IMG/VR virus record: IMGVR_UViG_2751185968_000013
DNA from: a virus
Lineage: Duplodnaviria; Heunggongvirae; Uroviricota; Caudoviricetes
Strand: one strand, 5' to 3'
Length of the DNA: 10,613 bases
Shown: piece after piece, positions 1-10,613 of the stretch
How the letters are laid out: each line of letters starts with the position of its first letter
How positions within the stretch are numbered: position 1 is the first letter of the stretch
The notes under the pieces: model-generated
Told to the model about the DNA's origin: nothing
Databases searched by the model: none
Seen by the model: only the letters and a program-made list of their open reading frames with translations
Program-made: the position numbers and the translations under genes

Positions 1-165
1 TTTCTGGTGCGTACCGGGCTGAGAGGCGGTGTAAGTGAACTGTAGTTGCCATGTTTTACGGCAATGAGAGCAGAGATAGCGCTGATGTCCGGCAGTGCTT
101 TTGCCGTTACGCACCACGCCTTCAGTAGCGGAGCAGGAAGGACATCTGATGGAAATGGAAGCCAC
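1..165 (-). CDS. insA: IS1 InsA (N-terminal 55 codons, partial; GTG start at 165)
   Basis: Minus-strand translation from GTG at 165-163 gives [55 protein letters not shown], the zinc-finger N-terminus of InsA. The listed + strand ORF 46-255 is its antisense. Confidence 0.85.
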
Positions 166-220
166 GCAAGCACCTTAAAATCACCATCATACACTAAATC
201 AGTAAGTTGGCAGCATTACC
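1..220 (-). mobile_element. IS1-family insertion sequence, partial (left inverted-repeat end plus start of insA; continues beyond window start)
   Basis: Reverse complement of 1-220 reads GGTAATGCTGCCAACTTACTGATTTAGTGTATGATGGTG... followed by the insA reading frame, about 90% identical to the canonical IS1 left end as I recall it. The terminal inverted repeat ends at 220. Confidence 0.9.
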
Positions 221-634
221 AGAAATTTCATGTTTTAACTCATCATTATCTATAATATTTTTATGTGCATTCTCAATATATTTAGATATTGACAACTTCA
301 AAGGAGACTGTTCGTTAATGAAAGTTTTCTCCTGTTCTTTTTCACTTAATGCTAATTGTCCTTCTTCAGTATCCCACCATTTCTCAGCATATGCAGACAC
401 CAATAATTGTGCATATTCGGGTAAGTCACCATTAGATTTTGTTTTTAATTTTATATGATTTTCCCCAATTGCCTCAGCAAAATGCTTCAAAAGGTCTTGC
501 CAACATGGCACACCAAGATAACGACGAGACACACCGGAGCCGACAAATAACACTGGGGATGCTTCGAACTGCTTAAAATGCTCTTCGAGTTTTTTCTTAA
601 AATTCATACGGATACTATCTTTAAAAGAAATCAA
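221..634 (-). pseudogene. SIR2-like (sirtuin/ThsA-like) gene, N-terminal 138 codons only; 3' part cut off by the IS1 insertion at 220/221
   Basis: ORF 194-634 (-) starts at TTG 634 (SD-like AAAGGGG 1 nt upstream; alternative ATG at 607). Residues 27-49 PVLFVGSGVSRRYLGVPCWQDLL and 69-78 GDLPEYAQLL match the SIR2 N-terminal pattern recalled from ThsA (hFxGxGxS...G..W..LL...ndL..AQ). The last 8 codons plus stop (GNAANLLI*) are encoded by the IS1 inverted repeat, so the native ORF continued. GC content is low compared with the P4 backbone. Confidence 0.55.
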
Positions 635-997
635 GCCCCTTTATACTGATTACATTAAGATATTGCGGCTTACACCACCAGTAAATTGGTCAATTTTACG
701 TAAGAAATTTAATTATTTAGATTCAATTAATTATTAGATTAACTAATTGACTATCACTCCTGATGTAGCCGAATTGCTGTACCTTTGTTACGATGTAGGG
801 CTCAATCAAGGGTCCACTCCCCTTTTATAAGTAATCATGACTTTAAATTTAGGCTTAGGTGGAGCATTACTGCCGATTAGGTTCAATAAAAAGGCTTACC
901 TTAGTGAAAACTCGGCTATTTGGCACTGCTGACCAATTCCTCGTTTGAATAAGTCAGCAGCTTTCAATTTAGAGGCGAATGTGCGCTTTTAGATAAC

Positions 998-2266
998 TCA
1001 CTCGCCATTACCCCGATTGATCTTCGCATAGTCAAACGGCGTAATCCCCTTCTCCCGGTTCGCATCCAGAAAATCAGCCCACCACTGCAACATCAGCTTG
1101 CGCTCATCCAGATGTTCCGCTTTATGGATATACGCCGCCCTCACCGAATTGCGTTCCATATGGCTCATCTGCCTTTCCACCGCATCCTTCGACCATAACC
1201 CTGACTCAATCAATGAGCTACAGGCCATAGTGCGGAAGCCGTGGCCGCAAACCTCAACCTTGGTGTCATAGCCCATCACCCGCAATGCACTGTTCACCGT
1301 GTTTTCACTCATGGGCTTACTCGGATCGTGATCGCCAATAAAAATCAGCTCATGTTCGCCACAGAACTGTTTTATCTGCTTCAGGATCGCTAGCGCCTGC
1401 TTTGAAAGCGGCACCAGATGAGGTGTACGCATCTTTGCTCCTCGCTGAGAATGTTTCACACCGGGAATAGGTTCTCGCTCAGGCGGGATGGTCCACATTG
1501 ACGTTTCAAAATCGATTTCTGACCAGCGAGCAAAACGCAGCTCACTGGATCGAATAAAAATAAGCAGGGTAAGTTCGGTTGCCCAGCGGGTTAGTGGCCT
1601 GCCGGTGTATTCATCGATTTTCTGGAGTAATTCCGGGATACGCTTTAACTCCAGCGCCGGACGATGCTGTCGATTACTGGAAGCTACCGCCCCCGCCATC
1701 TCTTGCGCCGGATTGTAATCAATTAACCCGCTTTGCACTGCATAACGCATGATGGCCGTGGTGCGCTGTTGAAGGCGGGAAGCCACTTCAAGACGTCCGG
1801 ATTTCTCCACGGCTTTAATAGGAATTAACAGATCGCGGGTGCCCAGTTCAGCAATATTGTGGGAACCAATTGCCGGGAAGATATTGTCCTCCAGGCTCTT
1901 TTTTACACGATTAGCATGCTCTTCCGACCATTTTTGGTTGGTTACGAGCCACTCTCTGGCAACCTTCTCGAAAGTAATAATCTCTTTCGCCTGCTCTTCT
2001 TTCACAGCACGCTTATGCTCACGAGGATCGATACCAGCAGCTACCAGCTTTCTGGCCTCTTCCCTTTTCTTCCGCGCATCCGCCAGCGAAACATCCGGGT
2101 AAACGCCGAACGCCATCAAATGTTGTTTACCGCCAAAACGGAAACGAAATCGCCAATACTTTGAACCGCCAGGTTTTACAAGTAAGGACATGCCGTCGCC
2201 GTCAACAAGTGAATACTCTTTCTCCTCAGGTTTCGCAGAGCGAACTTTAGTATCCGTTAGGGCCAT
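998..2266 (-). CDS. int: P4-type tyrosine integrase
   Basis: Protein MALTDTKVRSAKPEEKEYSLVDGDGMSLLVKPGGSKYWRFRFRFGGKQHLMAFGVYPDVSLADARKK... with C-terminal catalytic region (HGFR, HMERNSVRAAYIHKAE) typical of P4/CP4-57-family integrases. Start chosen at ATG 2266 with SD GGAAGGAAG 7 nt upstream; the listed ORF start at 2344 is an in-frame extension without SD. Confidence 0.9.
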   Translation of the reverse strand: MALTDTKVRSAKPEEKEYSLVDGDGMSLLVKPGGSKYWRFRFRFGGKQHLMAFGVYPDVSLADARKKREEARKLVAAGIDPREHKRAVKEEQAKEIITFEKVAREWLVTNQKWSEEHANRVKKSLEDNIFPAIGSHNIAELGTRDLLIPIKAVEKSGRLEVASRLQQRTTAIMRYAVQSGLIDYNPAQEMAGAVASSNRQHRPALELKRIPELLQKIDEYTGRPLTRWATELTLLIFIRSSELRFARWSEIDFETSMWTIPPEREPIPGVKHSQRGAKMRTPHLVPLSKQALAILKQIKQFCGEHELIFIGDHDPSKPMSENTVNSALRVMGYDTKVEVCGHGFRTMACSSLIESGLWSKDAVERQMSHMERNSVRAAYIHKAEHLDERKLMLQWWADFLDANREKGITPFDYAKINRGNGE

Positions 2267-2292
2267 AATGGTCTTCCTTCCATTGGTATCTC

Positions 2293-2344
2293 GTGAGTAT
2301 ACAAGCAATATCGAATCGGCAAATATACTCATTAGTATACTCAC
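2293..2344 (-). promoter_or_regulatory. Candidate int promoter/operator: 10-bp inverted repeat GTGAGTATAC (2293-2302) / GTATACTCAC (2335-2344), with a third partial copy TATACTCA at 2324-2331 overlapping TATACT-like -10 hexamers
   Basis: Repeats read directly from sequence, 27-78 bp upstream of the int start codon. Role as an Int or repressor binding site is inferred. Confidence 0.35.
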
Positions 2345-2350
2345 AAGCCT

Positions 2351-2385
2351 GTTGATGTGGGTTGAGTCAGGTTGACTTCAGTTGA
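2351..2385. repeat. Four GTTGA pentamers in exact 10-bp phase (2351, 2361, 2371, 2381); candidate arm-type recombinase binding sites
   Basis: gttgatgtgg gttgagtcag gttgacttca gttgagggga read directly. Located between int and the att core. Function is inferred. Confidence 0.4.
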
Positions 2386-2429
2386 GGGGAAAAGCTGGAA
2401 AAGCCTTGTGTAGCGCGGATTTCAGGCAT

Positions 2430-2455
2430 AAAAAAAAGACCTCAGTTGAGGTCTA
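2430..2455 (-). terminator. Rho-independent terminator (minus strand) between att core and int
   Basis: Minus strand reads AGACCTC-caact-GAGGTCT followed by T8 (+ strand A-run 2430-2437; stem 2437-2443 / 2449-2455). Confidence 0.55.
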
Positions 2456-2467
2456 TTTACATACTTT

Positions 2468-2490
2468 TGGTGCGAAGGCCGGACTCAAAT
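2468..2490 (-). other. att core: tRNA 3'-end-like sequence (minus strand ATTTGAGTCCGGCCTTCGCACCA)
   Basis: Matches a tRNA T-arm/acceptor/CCA end, close to the tRNA-Leu (leuX) 3' end GAGTCCGGCCTTCGGCACCA that forms the P4 att core as I recall it, with one missing G. No full tRNA lies upstream of it; P4-like sequence is on both sides. Confidence 0.6.
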
Positions 2491-2682
2491 ATCAAAATAA
2501 GTTAATGATAAAAAACAAATAATAAAACACAACAATGAAATATGCCCCCTTTTGTGCCCCCACTGTTTTTCTGACCAATCTATTTTCAGCCCATCAATAA
2601 ATCGGAAAGTTAAATAATTTTTAATCAGTAAGTTTGATCCGTAGCCCGGATCCAAACCAGTGCATCTTTTATCCACATAAAA

Positions 2683-2975
2683 AATTTTTTTTCGAAAGAA
2701 CTGTTCACACTGTTCACCATTTAATTTTCTCCTTTTATTTCAGAGTGATAGGTGGTGAATAATGGGTGAAGGGTGAACATTCGATTCTTCACCTCCGGCA
2801 TTCTGCCGGTGTGACTCATACCGGTGATTAATCCCCCGTACTGAAAATCGCACAGGGAGAAAAAAGTTTTTTTTGATTTGATTGTTCACACTGTTCACCT
2901 TTCATTTTTCTCTTTTAATTTCAGTGTGATAACGGGTGAATATACGGTGAAGGGTGAACAGTGGATTGTTCACCT
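2683..2975. repeat. crr-like cis replication region: two ~115-bp direct repeats (period 181 bp) each carrying alpha-binding type I iterons
   Basis: Unit A: TGTTCACA 2702-2709, TGTTCACC 2711-2718, GGTGAACA 2772-2779. Unit B: TGTTCACA 2883-2890, TGTTCACC 2892-2899, GGTGAACA 2953-2960, TGTTCACC 2967-2974. P4 crr is described as two 120-bp repeats separated by ~60 bp containing TGTTCACC octamers. Confidence 0.75.
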
Positions 2976-2992
2976 TCGGGGGAGGTCGGGAT

Positions 2993-3017
2993 AAAAAAAG
3001 ACCGGCAGATGCCGGTC
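2993..3017 (-). terminator. Rho-independent terminator just downstream of alpha (minus strand)
   Basis: Perfect palindrome GACCGGCA-ga-TGCCGGTC (3000-3017) followed on the minus strand by T7 (+ strand A-run 2993-2999), 8 bp past the alpha stop codon. Confidence 0.7.
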
Positions 3018-3024
3018 AGGTGGG

Positions 3025-5358
3025 TCAGGTTGTTGCAGGGTCGTCACATTTTGGCAGCCAGTCGCCGTAGCTTTCCTCTTTCAGTGTCAGGTTGGTCTGT
3101 ATCCCCTGTTTGGTATGGCGCTTCTCGTAATTCAGTCCGTATTCCTTCAGCATCACCGGCAGCCCCAGCCCGAACATTTTCAGACTGAGTACATTCCGGT
3201 AGCCGTTTGCCTCCATGTAGGCCAGATAGGCGTGATAGAGGTATTTACGGTAATTACGCGGGATGATACTGGCGTTCCCCATATACATGCCGCTGGTCTG
3301 CGGCAGGGTTTCCAGATAGCCGATAAAATCAAACGTCGGGTCGGCATCCCGTTTGATGTTCAGCGCCTCGTCTGAGTTCTGCTGGGACTGAAGCAGTGAC
3401 CGGGCGAGCATCGGGTCGCTGAACTTCTGCATCAGGTGACGCACGATGACCGCCAGCTCGCGGGTGATTTTGTCCTTAAGCTGCGGGTCGCGCTCCTGCG
3501 GGGCTATCTGTTCCGGGAAGTGAATAATCACCCGCCGGCGTGACACGCCGCCGCTGCGGTCGGTGAAGCGCATCGGGTTATTGTTCACGGCCAGAATCAC
3601 CGCCGGGATATGCGTGGAGTACGCATCCCGGTATTTCGGGTCCACGGACACCGCATCGCCGCCGGTGATGGCCTTGAGTCCGGCACCGTCGCCGCTCCAT
3701 TTTTCCTGGTCCGGCAGGCGTATCAGTGAGAAGCCAGTTAACGCGGCACGTTCACGCGGGGATTCCAGCGTCTCAATGGTGGCCGACGTGGCGTTATCCT
3801 CCCCGGCCAGCAGGGTGGCGATTTCGGCCATGATACTTTTGCCGCTGCCGCCGGGACCGGTCACCTCCAGAAAGAGCTGCCAGTCGTAGCGGTTTGCCAG
3901 CACCATAAACAGTGCGGCCAGAATCACGTCGCGTTTTTCCGCACGGCCACCGGCGGCACGGTCAAGCCAGCGCCAGAACGCGGGGGCGTGGGTTTCCAGC
4001 GTTTCCCCTTCCACCGGTGGGGTGAAATCCACATCGCACAGGGTACGCATCCAGTGTGACGGACTGTGCGGGTGGAACGTGCCGTTCTGTGTGTCGAGCA
4101 CACCGTTACGAAAGCCAATCAGGCGGCGGGAGGGGGCTTCCTGCTGCGGAATAATCAGCTTCAGGGTGTCCACCACGGAGGCCACCTTCCCGGAGGAGAA
4201 CGGCGCGCGCAGACGCTGAAACAGCCCGGCCACATCCCGGGCAAAGTCCAGTGGCGGCAGCACCTTCCAGACACCATTTTCATAGCGGGACAGAAGCTGG
4301 CCGTTGGCATCGACCGCGAGCGCCTCGCCGTAATGCTCATAGATACGCATGGCCTTTTCGCTGGTACTCATGGCGGAAAACTCTGCTTCGCTCATGGTGT
4401 CGAACGGGCTTTCAGCCGGTGGCCGGATGGCATCGTAAATGGCCTTACGGGTGACCTCCCCGCCGTACTGCGTGAAGGCATCATTCCAGTCACCGAAGAC
4501 CGGCGGCAGGGCAACAACACCTTCACACGCATCTGCGGCTGCGGCGGCTTTTTTCTGGCCGTCACCGCTGAGGTCACGGTCTGCGGCAAGGACAATCTGA
4601 CAGGCCGGATGCTTCTGCCGGGCAAGGCTGGCCAGAGAAAGGAGGTTCACGGAAGAAAGCGCCACCATCACCGTTTCACCGGTCAGGTGATGTACGGTAA
4701 GTGCGGTCGCGTATCCCTCCGCTATCCACAGACGTTTTCCGGCCTGATTCTGTCCTTCAAGGGTGTGACAGGTGCCCCTGACCTGTCCGCCTTTCAGGGT
4801 GCGCTTACGGCCGTCAGCACTGATTAATTGAAGGTTAACCAGTTCGCCGCTGTCGTCATACAGTGGCACCACAAGGTCACCGGCGCGCCAGCTCACGCCA
4901 CCGGCTCTGTGTGTGCCGGTCAGCATCCGGCATTCCCGGCCGGGAAAGCCCTTGCGGGTCAGGTAGGCGTTACCGGTTCCGGGACGGGTTTTTGCCATCA
5001 GGGTTTGTGCCAGTGCGGCGGCGTTCTTCCGGGCAGCGTCTGTTTCAGCAACGGCGGCGGCCGTCACTGCCGGGTCAGCCGGGGGCAGACTGCCGGTCAC
5101 GGCAGCCACCTTTGCGGCCACGTCGGACGGGGAGACACCAAACACCTTTTCAACCAGTTTCAGGCCGTCACCGGCACCACACTGATTGCAGTACCAGGTG
5201 CCGCGCCCCTCCCTGTCATCAAAACGGAAGCGGTCACTCCCGCCACAGACCGGACAGGGCTGATGATGGTTCTTCAGCACCTGAATCCCCAGCGCCGGGA
5301 GAATACGCGGCCAGTGGCCGAGCGCATGGCTGACGGTGGCGGTTACGTTCATTTTCAT
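3025..5358 (-). CDS. alpha: P4 alpha-type multifunctional replication protein (primase, helicase, iteron-binding)
   Basis: 777 aa, the length recalled for P4 alpha. N-terminal zinc-finger primase motif CPVCGGSDRFRFDD...WYCNQCG, Walker A GPGGSGKS in the helicase region, SD AAGGAG 9 nt upstream of ATG 5358. Positioned next to the iteron repeats. Confidence 0.9.
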   Translation of the reverse strand: MKMNVTATVSHALGHWPRILPALGIQVLKNHHQPCPVCGGSDRFRFDDREGRGTWYCNQCGAGDGLKLVEKVFGVSPSDVAAKVAAVTGSLPPADPAVTAAAVAETDAARKNAAALAQTLMAKTRPGTGNAYLTRKGFPGRECRMLTGTHRAGGVSWRAGDLVVPLYDDSGELVNLQLISADGRKRTLKGGQVRGTCHTLEGQNQAGKRLWIAEGYATALTVHHLTGETVMVALSSVNLLSLASLARQKHPACQIVLAADRDLSGDGQKKAAAAADACEGVVALPPVFGDWNDAFTQYGGEVTRKAIYDAIRPPAESPFDTMSEAEFSAMSTSEKAMRIYEHYGEALAVDANGQLLSRYENGVWKVLPPLDFARDVAGLFQRLRAPFSSGKVASVVDTLKLIIPQQEAPSRRLIGFRNGVLDTQNGTFHPHSPSHWMRTLCDVDFTPPVEGETLETHAPAFWRWLDRAAGGRAEKRDVILAALFMVLANRYDWQLFLEVTGPGGSGKSIMAEIATLLAGEDNATSATIETLESPRERAALTGFSLIRLPDQEKWSGDGAGLKAITGGDAVSVDPKYRDAYSTHIPAVILAVNNNPMRFTDRSGGVSRRRVIIHFPEQIAPQERDPQLKDKITRELAVIVRHLMQKFSDPMLARSLLQSQQNSDEALNIKRDADPTFDFIGYLETLPQTSGMYMGNASIIPRNYRKYLYHAYLAYMEANGYRNVLSLKMFGLGLPVMLKEYGLNYEKRHTKQGIQTNLTLKEESYGDWLPKCDDPATT

Positions 5359-5372
5359 GGTGTTGTTCTCCT

Positions 5373-5693
5373 TCAGTGCAGTACCGGCGCTTTTATGTGA
5401 CGGGCACAGAGTTCATCCATCACAACCAGCCCGAGAAAGGACAGCGACGGTGCGGCCTTCAGGGGGCCGGATTCCATTAAATCTTCCAGCAGGGCACAGG
5501 CTATCTGACGCCCTTTTTCCTCACCGTGCTGGCGCAGATAAAAGCCTTCCAGCTCAGCGGCGATGGCCGCCTCCAGTGACTCAAGGGTGAGATGCGGGTA
5601 GCGGTGCTGACGTTCGCACACGGTCAGCCAGGCACAGGCGACAGCACGACGGTAAAGGGCTGCGCGTAAGACGGGCGGTAAGGGTGTTTTCAT
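5373..5693 (-). CDS. Hypothetical protein, 106 aa, immediately upstream of alpha in the same operon
   Basis: ORF with SD GGAGG 7 nt upstream of ATG 5693; stop 15 nt before the alpha start. No recognisable motif. Confidence 0.55.
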
Positions 5694-5828
5694 TTGCTTT
5701 CCTCCCTGTGACAGATGACTGCATTCCGTGCCGGTTGCATTAACTGATAAGGCATATCTGCGTCTCCTGAAGACGTGCGTATCCCTGCGCGAATACGCAC
5801 ATTTAATTTTTCGGGTGTCGTTTTTTAA

Positions 5829-6284
5829 TTACAGATAATTGCGGTAACTGTTATCCGGGGTGATTTCCGGGTCAGGCTCCGTGCGGGGAATTTCCCGCCA
5901 TTCCCGCGCTACCGGTGCTGCCCGGCTGACCGGAACAGTGTCCTGCGGGTAAATATCCAGATATTTCTCCCGCCATTTCTGTAATTCCGGGTCTCCGGCC
6001 ATTTCTTTCAGTACCGCATGCCGGTTTACGGGGCTGCGTTTAAACAGGTCAGGACGGTCACAGGTAAATTCCCGCAGAAAACGCCCCAGCGGGATGTCTG
6101 TGGTGCGCCCGTCGGCGAGGATACGCACAAGGATACTGAATTTACGGCGGTACGGGTTCCAGACAATGTCCGGGCAGCGGTACGGCATTTCCCACGGAAT
6201 ACCGTCTTCCAGAATGCCGACCACGGCCACATCGGGAAAACCGGCAGAACGGTAAATCTCACCGGGCTGGGGAAAATCAAACAT
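5829..6284 (-). CDS. Hypothetical protein, 151 aa (same length and position as P4 orf151)
   Basis: ATG 6284 with SD GGGAG upstream; its start overlaps the epsilon stop (ATGTTTGA). Position between epsilon and alpha, and the length, match P4 orf151. Confidence 0.6.
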   Translation of the reverse strand: MFDFPQPGEIYRSAGFPDVAVVGILEDGIPWEMPYRCPDIVWNPYRRKFSILVRILADGRTTDIPLGRFLREFTCDRPDLFKRSPVNRHAVLKEMAGDPELQKWREKYLDIYPQDTVPVSRAAPVAREWREIPRTEPDPEITPDNSYRNYL

Positions 6285-6564
6285 GCGTCCTGTCTCCCCG
6301 GTCTTTCTGCTGGGCGAGAAAATCGCGGCACAGGCCTTTGGCTTTCAGCTCATTCAGCACAAAATCAATATCTTCATTCAGGTAGCTGAAAATATGCGGA
6401 ATGTAGAGCTGATGCAGGCCGGAGAGTTCACGGTGAATCAAATCACCCCCAACAAACTGGGATACGGCGCTGGCGCGGTTGAGCTTATGGTAAGCCTCAA
6501 TGCTGAGGTGTTCACGGGCGTCATGACGTGCTGAGACGGTCTGAGGGGCTTTTTTATTACGCAC
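6277..6564 (-). CDS. epsilon: P4 epsilon-like derepression protein (95 aa)
   Basis: GTG start at 6564 with SD GGAGG 6 nt upstream gives exactly 95 aa ([10 protein letters not shown]...DRGDRTHV), the length recalled for P4 epsilon. The listed 190-aa ORF 6277-6849 is an unsupported 5' extension. Confidence 0.6.
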
Positions 6565-6754
6565 GGGACACCTCCACCACCGGCAGACGGGCAGCAAGGG
6601 AGAGCACATAGTCACGGACAAGGGAACGGCGGGCACTGCGTTCATCACCGGCCACGGTGCGAAGCATACAGATACGGGGATGACGGTCTGCGCGACGGAC
6701 AGCCGCAAACACAAAGACAAATTCAGGGTGTGAGGGGGTAAGGGTTGTAGCCAT
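6557..6754 (-). CDS. Small ORF (65 aa), first translated gene of the left operon; possible kil analogue
   Basis: ATG 6754 with strong SD AGGAGG 8 nt upstream; stop overlaps the epsilon GTG start (translational coupling). Lies directly downstream of the seqC-like hairpin. The longer in-frame ORF to 7201 lacks any SD. Confidence 0.35.
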
Positions 6755-6784
6755 GATGGCAGCCTCCTGTGAATAGCAAATAAC

Positions 6785-7081
6785 GCTATCGCCGGAGTTC
6801 TCACGCTCGATGGCGATAGCCCAGACGGGGGTGAGAATACCGGCTTCACAGGATACCGGCCAGCCCGGAGGCTGCCCCGCCTGAGCTACCATTGACTCTG
6901 CGGCATAATGAGCGGACGCGGGCAGGATGCACGGAATGCCATCTGCACGACTGACCACACACCACACCATAATCTGGCGCTCTGTGGCATTGATTGCGAC
7001 ACAAAAAAAGACGCGTGGCGCGTCATATGTCGCCTGTGAATTGCTCGGGTTCTCACGCCCGGCTGCCGATTTTGCGGCAGC
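6785..7081 (-). promoter_or_regulatory. Candidate P4-type RNA immunity leader (seqA / CI-RNA seqB / seqC arrangement)
   Basis: Direct repeat GTTCTCACGC at 7049-7058 and 6797-6806 (+ coordinates; transcribed as GCGUGAGAAC), with a partially complementary GTGAGAAT at 6831-6838 between them. The downstream copy sits in the 18-nt loop of a 9-bp stem (GCTATCGCC 6785-6793 / GGCGATAGC 6812-6820). A 7-bp hairpin (7062-7068 / 7075-7081) sits at the predicted transcript 5' end. Confidence 0.35.
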
Positions 7082-7087
7082 GGAAAA

Positions 7088-7117
7088 ACTATATCCGCAA
7101 ATGCCGGAAAAAGGCAA
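7088..7117 (-). promoter_or_regulatory. Candidate sigma70 promoter for the left operon (PLE-like)
   Basis: Minus strand TTGCCT (-35; + 7112-7117), 18-bp spacer, TATAGT (-10; + 7088-7093), just upstream of the immunity leader and downstream of vis. Confidence 0.4.
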
Positions 7118-7152
7118 GCCAGAAAAAGGGAGTTTTTGCAGAGCGGGCATCA

Positions 7153-7419
7153 TCATGCGTCGTACCCCCGTTTGCGTCCGGCAATGCGTCCGGCCATCCA
7201 TGCGGTGACTTCAGAGTGCAGCCAGGCCACATTTTTACCGCCAAGACTCACCTGCGGCGGAAATTCCCCCTTACGGATGAGTTCATAGATGGTCGAGCGT
7301 GACAGGCCGCACAGGTGCATCACTTCCGGCAGACGTAAAAAACGCTCCTGCGTGATGTCCGGCAGCGGCATCAGTGGCGTCACAGGGGCGGGAGACGGGG
7401 AAGAAAAAACAGCTTGCAT
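7153..7419 (-). CDS. vis: Vis/AlpA-family excisionase-like transcriptional regulator (88 aa)
   Basis: Contains [48 protein letters not shown], the AlpA/Vis helix-turn-helix signature. 88 aa matches P4 Vis (orf88). SD GAGG 7 nt upstream of ATG 7419. Confidence 0.8.
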
Positions 7420-7520
7420 CGGGCTACCTCGTTAATGTCCATACAGCACCGGATAAGTCCGTCCGGCTTCGGGTAGCGCTTTATTTTGTGAATATTTTTG
7501 GCAGATGCAACAGGGGGGAT

Positions 7521-7538
7521 TTGTTCCGGCAGTCTTAC
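7521..7538 (-). promoter_or_regulatory. TGT-N12-ACA box (Delta/Ogr-type activator site); candidate late promoter PLL driving vis
   Basis: TGTtccggcagtcttACA read directly; about 110 bp upstream of the vis start. P2/P4 late promoters carry TGT-N12-ACA centred near -55. Confidence 0.45.
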
Positions 7539-7697
7539 AATGGCTGTGTATTTTTTATACATCAGCGCCAGATGGCTTTAAAACGCTCTGGAAGGAGCTG
7601 GAAAAAATTATAGTGAAATACAAATTGTTTTTTCTTATTTATTTCAGTGGATTAATAAAAATAAAAAGTAATAAACAGCACAAAAAGTCTATGAGCG

Positions 7698-7801
7698 GGT
7701 GAACAGTGGTGAACAGACGGTGAACAGTCATTACTGCGATTGTTCACCCTTTAACTTACTGTATTACTTATCTTTTTTCTTATGGTGAACAGAGGTGAAC
7801 A
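7698..7801. repeat. ori-like iteron cluster: six type I octamers
   Basis: GGTGAACA at 7698-7705, 7708-7715, 7719-7726, 7784-7791, 7794-7801 and inverted TGTTCACC at 7741-7748. Flanked by an AT-rich stretch (7601-7690). Lies about 4.7 kb from the crr-like repeats, as in P4 (ori and crr 4.5 kb apart). Confidence 0.7.
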
Positions 7802-7880
7802 GTAAAATATAAAAAAACAAACAGTAAGCCGGTTTTTCCTGCGACCTTTTCCTGGCTTGCCGGTCTGAGGATGAGTCTCC

Positions 7881-7898
7881 TGTGTCAGGGCTGGCACA
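7881..7898 (+). promoter_or_regulatory. TGT-N12-ACA box; candidate Delta-activated Psid late promoter
   Basis: TGTgtcagggctggcACA, centred about 80 bp upstream of the sid ATG, with a CACAAT -10-like hexamer at 7932-7937. Confidence 0.5.
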
Positions 7899-7970
7899 TC
7901 TGCAATGCGTCGTGTTGTTGTCCGGTGTACGTCACAATTTTCTTAACCTGAAGTGACGAGGAGCCGGAAA

Positions 7971-8705
7971 ATGTCTGACAACACCATCCCTGAATATCTG
8001 CAACCCGCACTGGCACAACTGGAAAAGGCCAGAGCCGCCCACCTTGAGAACGCCCGCCTGATGGATGAGACCGTCACGGCCATTGAACGGGCAGAGCAGG
8101 AAAAAAATGCGCTGGCGCAGGCCGACGGAAATGACGCTGACGACTGGCGCACGGCCTTTCGTGCAGCCGGTGGTGTCCTGAGCGACGAGCTGAAACAGCG
8201 CCACATTGAGCGCGTGGCACGCCGGGAGCTGGTACAGGAATATGACAATCTGGCCGTGGTGCTGAATTTTGAACGTGAACGCCTGAAAGGGGCGTGTGAC
8301 AGCACGGCCACCGCCTACCGGAAGGCACATCATCACCTGCTGAGTCTGTATGCAGAGCATGAGCTGGAACACGCCCTGAATGAAACCTGTGAGGCGCTTG
8401 TCCGGGCAATGCATCTGAGTATCCTGGTACAGGAAAATCCGCTCGCCAACACCACCGGCCATCAGGGCTACGTCGCACCGGAAAAGGCTGTCATGCAGCA
8501 GGTGAAATCATCGCTGGAACAGAAAATTAAACAGATGCAAATCAGCCTCACCGGCGAGCCGGTTCTCCGGCTGACCGGACTGTCAGCGGCAACACTCCCG
8601 CACATGGATTATGAGGTGGCAGGCACACCGGCACAGCGCAAGGTGTGGCAGGACAAAATAGACCAGCAGGGAGCAGAGCTTAAGGCCAGAGGACTGCTGT
8701 CATGA
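7971..8705 (+). CDS. sid: Sid-like capsid size determination (external scaffold) protein, 244 aa
   Basis: ATG 7971 with SD GAGGAG 7 nt upstream (the listed ORF start at 7953 is an upstream GTG extension). Length 244 aa matches P4 Sid; first gene downstream of the late promoter box; stop overlaps the delta start (ATGA). Confidence 0.8.
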   Translation: MSDNTIPEYLQPALAQLEKARAAHLENARLMDETVTAIERAEQEKNALAQADGNDADDWRTAFRAAGGVLSDELKQRHIERVARRELVQEYDNLAVVLNFERERLKGACDSTATAYRKAHHHLLSLYAEHELEHALNETCEALVRAMHLSILVQENPLANTTGHQGYVAPEKAVMQQVKSSLEQKIKQMQISLTGEPVLRLTGLSAATLPHMDYEVAGTPAQRKVWQDKIDQQGAELKARGLLS

Positions 8706-9202
8706 TTTACTGCCCGTCGTGTGGACATGTTGCTCACACCCGTCGCGCACATTTCATGGACGATGGCACCAAGATAATGATTGCACAGTGCCGGAATATT
8801 TATTGCTCTGCGACATTTGAAGCGAGTGAAAGCTTTTTCTCTGACTGTAAAGATTCAGGAATGGAATACATTTCAGGCAAACAGAGATACCGCGATTCAC
8901 TGACGTCAGCCTCCGGCAGTATGAAACGCCCGAAAAGAATGCTTGTTACCGGATATTGTTGTCGGAGATGTAAAGGCCTTGCACTGTCAAGAACATCGCG
9001 GCGTCTGTCTCAGGAAGTCACCGAGCGTTTTTATGTGTGCACGGATCCGGGCTGTGGTCTGGTGTTTAAAACGCTTCAGACCATCAACCGTTTTATTGTC
9101 CGCCCGGTCACGCCGGACGAACTGGCAGAAAGCCTGCATGAAAAACAGGAACTGCCGCCAGTACGCTTAAAAACACAATCATATTCGCTGCGTCTGGAAT
9201 GA
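8702..9202 (+). CDS. delta: Delta-like late transcription activator (tandem Ogr-type zinc fingers), 166 aa
   Basis: Two Ogr-like Cys clusters (CPSCG...C..IYC and CCRRC...CTDPGC). 166 aa matches P4 Delta, a covalent dimer of Ogr-like domains. Confidence 0.85.
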   Translation: MIYCPSCGHVAHTRRAHFMDDGTKIMIAQCRNIYCSATFEASESFFSDCKDSGMEYISGKQRYRDSLTSASGSMKRPKRMLVTGYCCRRCKGLALSRTSRRLSQEVTERFYVCTDPGCGLVFKTLQTINRFIVRPVTPDELAESLHEKQELPPVRLKTQSYSLRLE

Positions 9203-9275
9203 GGGCTGCCGGTTAACACCGGCCGTCGCCGCACACCGTATTTTTATTCTTCAGCATGATGAGAAAGAGATAACG

Positions 9276-9848
9276 ATGGAAAGCACAGCCTTACAGCAGG
9301 TCTTTGACACCTGTCAGAATAACAAAGCAGCATGGCTGCAACGCAAAAATGAGCTGGCTGCGGCCGAACAGGAATATCTGCGGCTTCTGTCCGGGGAAGG
9401 CAGAAACGTCAGTCGCCTGGACGAATTACGCAATATTATCGAAGTCAGAAAATGGCAGGTGAATCAGGCTGCCGGTCGTTATATTCGTTCGCATGAAGCC
9501 GTTCAGCACATCAGCATCCGCGACCGGCTGAATGATTTTATGCAGCAGCACGGCACAGCACTGGCGGCGGCACTGGCACCGGAGCTGATGGGCTACAGTG
9601 AGCTGACGGCCATTGCCCGAAACTGTGCCATACAGCGTGCCACAGATGCCCTGCGTGAAGCCCTTCTGTCCTGGCTTGCGAAGGGGGAAAAAATTAATTA
9701 TTCCGCACAGGATAGTGACATTTTAACGACCATCGGATTCAGGCCTGACGCGACTTCGGTGGATGACAGCCGTGAAAAATTCACCCCTGCGCAGAACATG
9801 ATTTTTTCGCGTAAAAGTGCGCAACTGGCATCACGTCAGTCTGTGTAA
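9276..9848 (+). CDS. psu: Psu-like polarity suppression / capsid decoration protein, 190 aa
   Basis: Length 190 aa and position (last late gene before cos) match P4 Psu; the N-terminus MESTALQQVFDTCQNNKAAWLQRKNELAAAEQEYLRLL matches Psu as I recall it. Confidence 0.8.
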   Translation: MESTALQQVFDTCQNNKAAWLQRKNELAAAEQEYLRLLSGEGRNVSRLDELRNIIEVRKWQVNQAAGRYIRSHEAVQHISIRDRLNDFMQQHGTALAAALAPELMGYSELTAIARNCAIQRATDALREALLSWLAKGEKINYSAQDSDILTTIGFRPDATSVDDSREKFTPAQNMIFSRKSAQLASRQSV

Positions 9849-9883
9849 AATTCCCCGAAAATCCGCCCGTTTTTACTGAAAAA

Positions 9884-9923
9884 AGCCATGCATCGATAAG
9901 GTGCATGGCTTTGCATGCGTTTT
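9884..9923 (+). terminator. Candidate terminator of the sid-delta-psu operon
   Basis: 9-bp stem AGCCATGCA (9884-9892) / TGCATGGCT (9902-9910) with a 9-nt loop, followed by TTGCATGCGTTTT. The T-tract is interrupted, so this is a weak call. Confidence 0.4.
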
Positions 9924-10012
9924 CCTGCCTCATTTTCTGCAGACCGCGCCATTCCCGGCGCAGCCTGAGCGTGACTGTGCAACTGCATTAAAACCGCCCT
10001 GCAAAGCGGGCG

Positions 10013-10031
10013 GGCGTGGCGGGGAGAGCAT
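10013..10031. other. cos-like cohesive-end site
   Basis: GGCGTGGCGGGGAGAGCAT matches 16 of 19 positions of the P2/P4 cohesive end GGCGAGGCGGGGAAAGCAC as I recall it. Preceded by the palindrome CCGCCCtgcaaagcGGGCGG (9994-10013) and located downstream of psu, as in P4. Confidence 0.5.
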
Positions 10032-10237
10032 TGCGCGCCATGCCGTGAGGATAATTATTTTATTAATATTCAGCTCATGACGTCTGTAATTGGGAAGAAG
10101 TGAAAAATGCTCATGTAACTTATGAATATTTAACGTTAAACCGATCAAATTCTAGGGTGAAAACATTGCCCGCACGAAGTCAATGGGGTTATGCTTAATT
10201 TTTGAACATGATACATATCCCAAGATAAGAAGCTAAG

Positions 10238-10613
10238 TGAACCGCCCCGGGTTTCCTGGAGAGTGTTTTATCTGTGAACTCAGGCTGCCAGATCATCGTT
10301 TCCGATGGAAGCATAATAAGCTTTTTCTGCTTCTGCCGGAGGGATGTGGCCCAGCCTTTCCAGCAATCGTCGATTATTATACCAGTCCACCCACGTGAGT
10401 GTGGCCAGTTCCACTTCTGCACGGTTTTTCCAGCTCTTACGGTGTATTACCTCCGCTTTGTAAAGACCATTGATGCTCTCCGCCATCGCGTTGTCATACG
10501 AGTCGCCTGTACTTCCTGTTGATGCCAGTAATCCGGCTTCCTTAAGCCGCTGTGTGTAGGCCAGCGATACATACTGAGAACCTTTATCACTGTGATGGAC
10601 CGTGCCGGACGGT
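10238..10613 (-). mobile_element. IS3-family insertion sequence, partial (IS629/IS3411-like end; continues beyond window end)
   Basis: Terminal sequence TGAACCGCCCCGGGTTTCCTGGAGAGTGTTTTATCTGTGAACTCAG starts at 10238, which I recall as the IS629-type inverted repeat. It is followed by the transposase C-terminus on the minus strand. Confidence 0.8.
10280..10613 (-). CDS. IS3-family transposase (OrfB) C-terminal part, partial
   Basis: Minus-strand translation ...PSGTVHHSDKGSQYVSLAYTQRLKEAGLLASTGSTGDSYDNAMAESINGLYKAEVIHRKSWKNRAEVELATLTWVDWYNNRRLLERLGHIPPAEAEKAYYASIGNDDLAA* carries the DDE-integrase signature (HSD..., SYDNA..ES.N). The listed ORF 10280-10486 is just the portion after an internal Met. 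Confidence 0.85.
   Translation of the reverse strand, partial: PSGTVHHSDKGSQYVSLAYTQRLKEAGLLASTGSTGDSYDNAMAESINGLYKAEVIHRKSWKNRAEVELATLTWVDWYNNRRLLERLGHIPPAEAEKAYYASIGNDDLAA

Follow-up and report, generated by a model that had tools for sequence, protein, structure and literature searches.

The IS629 end that closes the 10,613-bp stretch of DNA analysed here (the whole of which is referred to as the window) is best read as one side of a simple insertion into a P4-like satellite. In the source strain, the satellite's cargo, its integrase and leuX would then follow after the complete 1310-bp element. For the DNA downstream of the window this arrangement is taken from close relatives, and we assign it a probability of about 0.75. 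IS629 would have hit the satellite just after an AT-rich leader and ahead of the ribosome-binding site and start codon (ATG) of a three-gene, PDC-M18-like candidate defence operon. What is seen here combines an IS insertion of the ordinary sort with an artefact of assembly.

Locus layout and the satellite core

Draft contig MIIV01000060.1 of assembly GCA_001743015.1 is 10,613 bp long, and the window is the whole of it, read as the reverse complement. Locus L017 (contig 280-10613) shows no difference from the reverse-complemented window across its 10,334 bp. Breaks in short-read assemblies fall in repeats. The breakpoint in IS629, 376-377 nt into the element, recurs in contigs with unrelated flanks, both in the same assembly and in other assemblies. 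Insertion sequences stand at both ends of the window because draft contigs break in repeats, which is an assembly effect, and the presence of IS1 and IS629 at these ends does not imply an IS-bounded unit.

Related loci were collected by protein look-ups with Psu and the integrase. Loci L008-L012 match window 1-10237 at 99.9% identity or more, with three mismatches at most (L012 begins at window 223 and thus comes without the IS1 end). Loci L005-L007, which include CP000036.1 (Shigella boydii Sb227), are equally close to the window, minus about 67 bp near window 492-558. IS1 lies at the identical site in most of the close relatives, and IS629 is found in none of them. On the cargo side, these relatives carry genes for proteins of 359, 178 and 336 aa, followed by a 421-aa integrase, tRNA-Leu(CAA) and then ahr, yjgR and lptGF. 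The gene order tRNA-Leu, integrase, cargo, cos through to alpha, second integrase and second island is common to several genomes of Shigella type and to four complete E. coli genomes. Cargo content differs in the four complete E. coli genomes, with the order unchanged.

In a Shigella-boydii-like genome, two elements appear to have integrated in tandem at leuX (tRNA-Leu), and the window covers a portion of this array. In complete genomes, such an array reads leuX (attL), P4-type satellite integrase, hotspot cargo, cos, psu-delta-sid through to alpha, crr and the attR core. Beyond the attR core lies a second, unrelated island, which carries a separate integrase together with a SIR2 gene and a type I restriction-modification system. 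The window begins with the IS1 that sits in SIR2 of the second island, crosses attR (2468-2486) and the core of the satellite, and ends in IS629.

The P4 genome (X51522) aligns to the window at 97.9% identity, over 2468-10012 only, and window 2468 aligns with P4 4078, where the annotated attP core begins. The satellite core genes, assigned by this identity and by Pfam families, occupy 3025-9848 on both strands. The minus strand carries an intact alpha primase-helicase (3025-5358, 777 aa), DUF5375/ORF106, ORF151, epsilon, the Ash/cI region and an AlpA-like ORF88, and the plus strand carries sid, delta (8702-9202) and psu (9276-9848). The cis replication region crr (2679-2979), with two 120-bp repeats and TGTTCACC-type iterons, aligns to P4 crr 4291-4590. 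With alpha, epsilon, an alpA-like gene, sid, delta, psu, cos and crr present, the element is a P4-like satellite, although the window contains no P4-type integrase belonging to it. From core to core, the satellite measures 11,840 bp in L009. As in P4, variable cargo starts straight after cos (Rousset et al. 2022, PMC9122126), and the P4 hotspot has been defined as the interval from psu/cos to int (PMC9122126). Unlike P4, which has gop-beta-cII in this place, the relatives carry a PDC-M18-like three-gene set as cargo. The window's element further differs from P4 in that its own integrase lies beyond the window and that an IS splits the cargo leader.

Two further observations concern this region. 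In L005 (3750-6083), the alpha gene is broken into pieces of 412 and 363 aa; the satellite core is decaying independently in sister strains. RefSeq lists a 336-nt ORF at window 2490-2830 (minus strand; L001 13490-13825, L004 11467-11802) as 'integrase' or 'hypothetical protein'. This ORF lies between alpha and the second integrase, spans att and crr and includes sequence of the crr iterons; it was probably called in error.

A copy of the att core lies at 2468-2486 and aligns to the annotated attP core of P4 (4078-4097), with 19 of the 20 core bases present and one C missing. It is the attR of the satellite and also the junction of the neighbouring island: homology to P4 begins here, and homology to L025, a locus that carries the second island, ends here. 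The tandem genomes each contain two direct copies of the core, of which the copy at leuX is perfect and the alpha-side copy lacks one C. The arrangement resembles that of leuX tandem islands, with two direct 20-bp core copies and an integrase gene about 200 bp from each. The exact 3' end of leuX had no match in the window, and the core copy with its 1-nt deletion was located by BLAST and fuzzy matching. One C is missing from the inner core (TGGTGC-GAAGGCCGGACTC) in all examined tandem genomes, both E. coli and Shigella-type (L001 13472, L003 11384, L009 3191), and the attP of P4 is perfect. This deletion in the attR core could impair excision of the satellite, or could be the mark of a single old origin of the tandem array.

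The neighbouring island and its IS1

The window encodes a tyrosine integrase of 422 aa (998-2266, minus strand) with the Pfam domains Arm-DNA-bind_3, Phage_int_M and Phage_integrase. It is 57% identical to P4 Int, compared with 95.6% for the leuX-proximal integrase of the relatives. In L025 and L028, an identical 422-aa integrase is found directly at leuX/yjgR without the satellite. The exact match of L025 to the window covers 221-2486, so that it starts right beside IS1 and stops with the att core. The integrase identities, the break in homology at the core and the arrangement in L025 and L028 together mean that window 1-2467 is a second island in tandem. The integrase at 998-2266 therefore belongs to this separate neighbouring island and not to the satellite. 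An episomal P4, or one in virion order, was also considered for the int gene beside alpha and was rejected on the same grounds, namely the integrase identity, the loss of P4 homology at the att core, and loci L025 and L028.

The left end of IS1 occupies 1-220 on the minus strand. Its terminus, ...GGCAGCATTACC, falls at 220, and InsA is represented by its first 55 codons (1-165, minus strand); the contig starts within the element. The preliminary description of this DNA had recognised an IS1 end here, and we agree: relatives have complete IS1 copies at this site, and 1-220 matches them at 100% identity. Identity to the annotated IS1A is 90.9%, both the terminal repeat and InsA coding sequence are present, and the full gene in L010 carries the Pfam domains Zn_ribbon_InsA, HTH_Tnp_IS1 and DDE_Tnp_IS1. 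The same description took both borders of the satellite's hotspot to be IS-bounded. This holds for IS629, which lies within the cos-int interval, but not for IS1, which sits past attR in the neighbouring island. A location of the insertion sequences outside the satellite had been named beforehand as evidence against that reading, and for IS1 this is what we found.

IS1 cuts a single-gene defence candidate of SIR2 type (PADLOC PDC-S25), of which an N-terminal fragment remains at 221-607 (minus strand). The ORF at 194-634 (minus strand) matches PDC-S25 in PADLOC (1.2e-37, profile positions 4-131 of 517) and has weak SIR2/ThsA matches; Pfam detected no domain in the fragment. In L025, the integrase is followed by an intact 529-aa SIR2_2 gene (11660-13249) and by a type I restriction-modification system. 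When L023 is set against L025, IS1 is seen to have been swapped in for 434 bp of the SIR2 gene, and no IS1 target duplication is expected because the insertion came with this 434-bp deletion. IS1 thus interrupts, and has inactivated, the SIR2 defence candidate of the neighbouring island. The roughly 67 bp of the SIR2 fragment at window 492-558 that are missing in L005-L007 (around 1284-1293), including CP000036.1, represent an indel in a dead gene. In its layout, the neighbouring island has defence candidates directly after the integrase, like the P4 hotspot.

IS629 between cos and the hotspot cargo

The alignment of the linear P4 record X51522 to the window stops at 10012. The next 19 bases, GGCGTGGCGGGGAGAGCAT (10013-10031, plus strand), form the cos cohesive-end 19-mer and match P4 bases 1-19, the left cohesive end, at 16 of 19 positions. 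Matches to other E. coli P4-like satellites stop at 10038-10040, which is the end of the conserved DNA. The AT-rich leader of the cargo module (10040-10237, plus strand) covers 198 bp with a GC content of 34.3%, compared with 52.1% for the whole window, so that the earlier observation of about 200 bp of AT-rich DNA after a cos-like site was accurate. Leader and cargo have the same GC content in L009, and of 5426 complete E. coli genomes, 7 carry the leader joined to gene 1 with nothing inserted between them. This co-occurrence means that the leader belongs to the cargo module. A promoter scan of 9800-10320 returned no consensus promoter.

The cos 19-mer itself varies between elements. The variant GGCGTGGCGGGGAGAGCAT differs from the P4 sequence GGCGAGGCGGGGAAAGCAC at 3 of 19 positions, and among the examined loci it is found only in elements with PDC-M18-like cargo (L003 and the Shigella-type loci), with the canonical P4 19-mer accompanying other cargo. 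That the cos variant tracks the cargo suggests that cargo swaps bring the cos core along, or that helper specificity differs.

IS629 is an IS3-family element of 1310 bp, with OrfA and OrfB and a programmed frameshift. Its right end occupies 10238-10613 (minus strand), beginning 198 bp beyond the end of the conserved cos DNA. At 10238 the terminal repeat starts with TGAACCGCCCCGGG. OrfB is represented by its final 110 codons, which lie at 10280-10612 on the minus strand and read towards cos. When 10238-10613 was compared with IS629 copies, 376 of 376 bases were covered at 98.9% identity in 172 phage records, several of which carry the annotation 'IS3 family IS629 / IS629 transposase OrfB'. The annotated IS629 of LC567824 is identical at 372 of 376 positions (4 mismatches); the end of its 1310-bp mobile_element 'IS3 family IS629' aligns to window 10238 and its OrfB stop aligns to 10280. 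Both ends of the full IS629 copy have TGAACCGCCCCGGG in common. The window shows the same terminus (TGAACCGCCCCGGGTTTCC...), the same OrfB C-terminus and the same stop position, and it differs from the full element in holding only one end, 376 of 1310 bp, with the contig stopping inside the element. The match far exceeds chance, and the near-identity to annotated IS629, including the terminal inverted repeat, identifies this sequence as IS629, in agreement with the IS629-like IS3-family end that had been proposed to begin at 10238.

The boundary at 10238 is fixed independently by IS-free relatives of 99.9% identity, which match the window through 10237 and then continue with gaaagagcATG. In these relatives the empty target site reads ...gataagaagctaag up to the insertion point and gaaagagcATG after it. 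By alignment to them, IS629 lies 8 nt upstream of the first cargo ATG, within the AAGGAAAGAG ribosome-binding context, and by synteny with them it lies between cos and the satellite integrase, in the hotspot. Some BLAST hits reached 15-36 nt further upstream (10202-10223), which raised the possibility of a longer IS or of a target preference; the flanks at three inspected sites were unrelated, and we attribute these extensions to chance. Across 24 of the 26 collection blocks with the cut OrfB product, the satellite flank occurs only in this contig (two samples). The 38-nt junction had no exact match in species-representative genomes, and the insertion site in the leader was occupied in none of the 5426 complete E. 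coli genomes.

The IS-free relatives of 99.9% identity carry, rightward from cos, the leader, a three-gene operon, a P4-type integrase and leuX. In L009, gene 1 of this operon matches PDC-M18A (6.3e-39) and gene 2 matches PDC-M18B (2.6e-15) in PADLOC. Gene 3 had no PADLOC match in L009, and Pfam detected no domain in any of the three cargo proteins. The relatives thus contain adjoining homologues of PDC-M18A and PDC-M18B, which constitute a candidate defence system. PDC-M18 is among the commonest contents of the P4 hotspot and corresponds to system 4 of Rousset et al. (PMC11754643).

Probable origin and predicted consequences of the insertion

A simple insertion predicts that the far end of IS629 is followed by (T)AAG-GAAAGAGCATGAATGTAGGG and then by the cargo, integrase and leuX. 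Based on the empty site, the target repeat would be (T)AAG, after which GAAAGAGCATG... and the cargo operon would be expected. The far junction would run from the left end of IS629 (...CCAGGATTCCCGGGGCGGTTCA) into (T)AAGGAAAGAGCATGAATGTAGGG. With one contig in two samples, the insertion would represent a single recent transposition of IS629.

The IS629 copy might instead be a rearrangement junction, at which IS629 recombination or an adjacent deletion removed or inverted the cargo, possibly together with the integrase and attL. The DNA past IS629 in the source strain would then be unrelated. The genome is of an IS-rich type, many contigs end in the same IS629 segment, and the 434-bp deletion beside the window's IS1 shows that IS-linked deletions occur at this locus. 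However, the left junction is a clean insertion point in otherwise 99.9%-identical sequence, and the cargo, integrase and leuX stay in order in all relatives with long contigs. As a simple insertion is also the most economical single event, we consider a rearrangement unlikely. A role in adaptive regulation has far less to commend it and is very improbable. IS629 would here supply or complete a promoter, or act as a reversible switch of a costly defence operon. Promoter supply has been described for some IS3-family elements, the insertion lies exactly between the leader and the ribosome-binding site, and the usual 3-4-bp duplication would restore the AAGGAAAGAG...ATG context, which is circumstantial. 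Yet the transposase genes face away from the cargo, and the restriction to a single contig (two samples) is in keeping with a recent insertion, of neutral or mildly deleterious effect, in a genome rich in IS copies.

The preliminary description had arrived at a different picture, in which a P4-like element of int-attP-alpha order has its hotspot split over the two window ends, with IS1 and IS629 flanking unseen cargo and possibly forming a composite transposon. The order int, att core, crr and alpha in the window does resemble the virion or plasmid map of P4, and there is one IS at each end. This order mimics free P4, which explains the misreading. In fact, P4 homology ends at the att core, the integrase has 57% identity to P4 Int, and the same integrase is present at leuX without a satellite, in L025 with an intact SIR2 gene. 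All relatives place the cargo between cos and a second, P4-type integrase beside leuX. It is the window itself that lies between the two IS copies, and the cargo lies to the right of IS629. A composite transposon needs two copies of the same or a compatible IS, as in Tn9 (IS1) and Tn10 (IS10). The window resembles these in having an IS at each end of a segment, but IS1 and IS629 come from different families, are related neither in their ends nor in their transposases, and therefore cannot make up a composite transposon. Furthermore, the segment between them consists of the satellite core and a foreign integrase, contains no cargo and coincides with the contig breaks, as the IS ends are the contig ends. 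We give this split-hotspot arrangement next to no credence. What stands of the preliminary interpretation is the position of IS629 in the variable interval; the IS1 border, the placement of the cargo, the composite transposon and the IS-bounded ends do not.

Under a simple insertion, everything upstream of position -8 would be pushed 1.3 kb away from the cargo, and the operon would be separated from any upstream promoter. The transposase genes of IS629 point from the cargo towards cos. The cargo operon is probably silenced or reduced by IS629, and a hybrid or outward promoter at the cargo-side end of the IS is possible. The satellite would grow from about 11.84 to about 13.15 kb, and at about 13.15 kb its packaging into small P4 capsids may be hampered. 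Elements of this kind seldom contain transposable elements, presumably owing to limits on packaging (2026 survey, PMC13586616). In E. coli, insertion sequences are common within P4-like elements and beside them. In L004, for example, IS1 lies in the integrase. L002 (NZ_CP023834.1, 6745-20389), an E. coli relative of this satellite, has insertions at three points, with IS629-like copies at two of them, upstream of sid and at the second integrase, and ISEc12 directly after psu. Accumulation of insertion sequences in leuX satellites is therefore not unusual. It is hardly probable that IS629 serves as a reversible or promoter-donating switch of the operon, or that the enlargement and the mutated attR fix the satellite. 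If the satellite were locked in place, the defence cargo would become a fixed chromosomal trait of the lineage.

In tandem leuX arrays such as this one, a foreign integrase beside alpha mimics the int-attP-alpha order of free P4, and readers and pipelines may place the hotspot wrongly as a result. Where a window has an IS copy at either end, this may mean no more than that a draft contig stops there. Decay of accessory genes is known in Shigella-type genomes. The present case adds another IS insertion to those known from Shigella-type genomes rich in IS copies. A candidate defence operon has probably been disabled by it, and the SIR2 defence candidate next door has been destroyed by a second IS. 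The damage by IS629 and IS1 fits such decay and implies no new mechanism.
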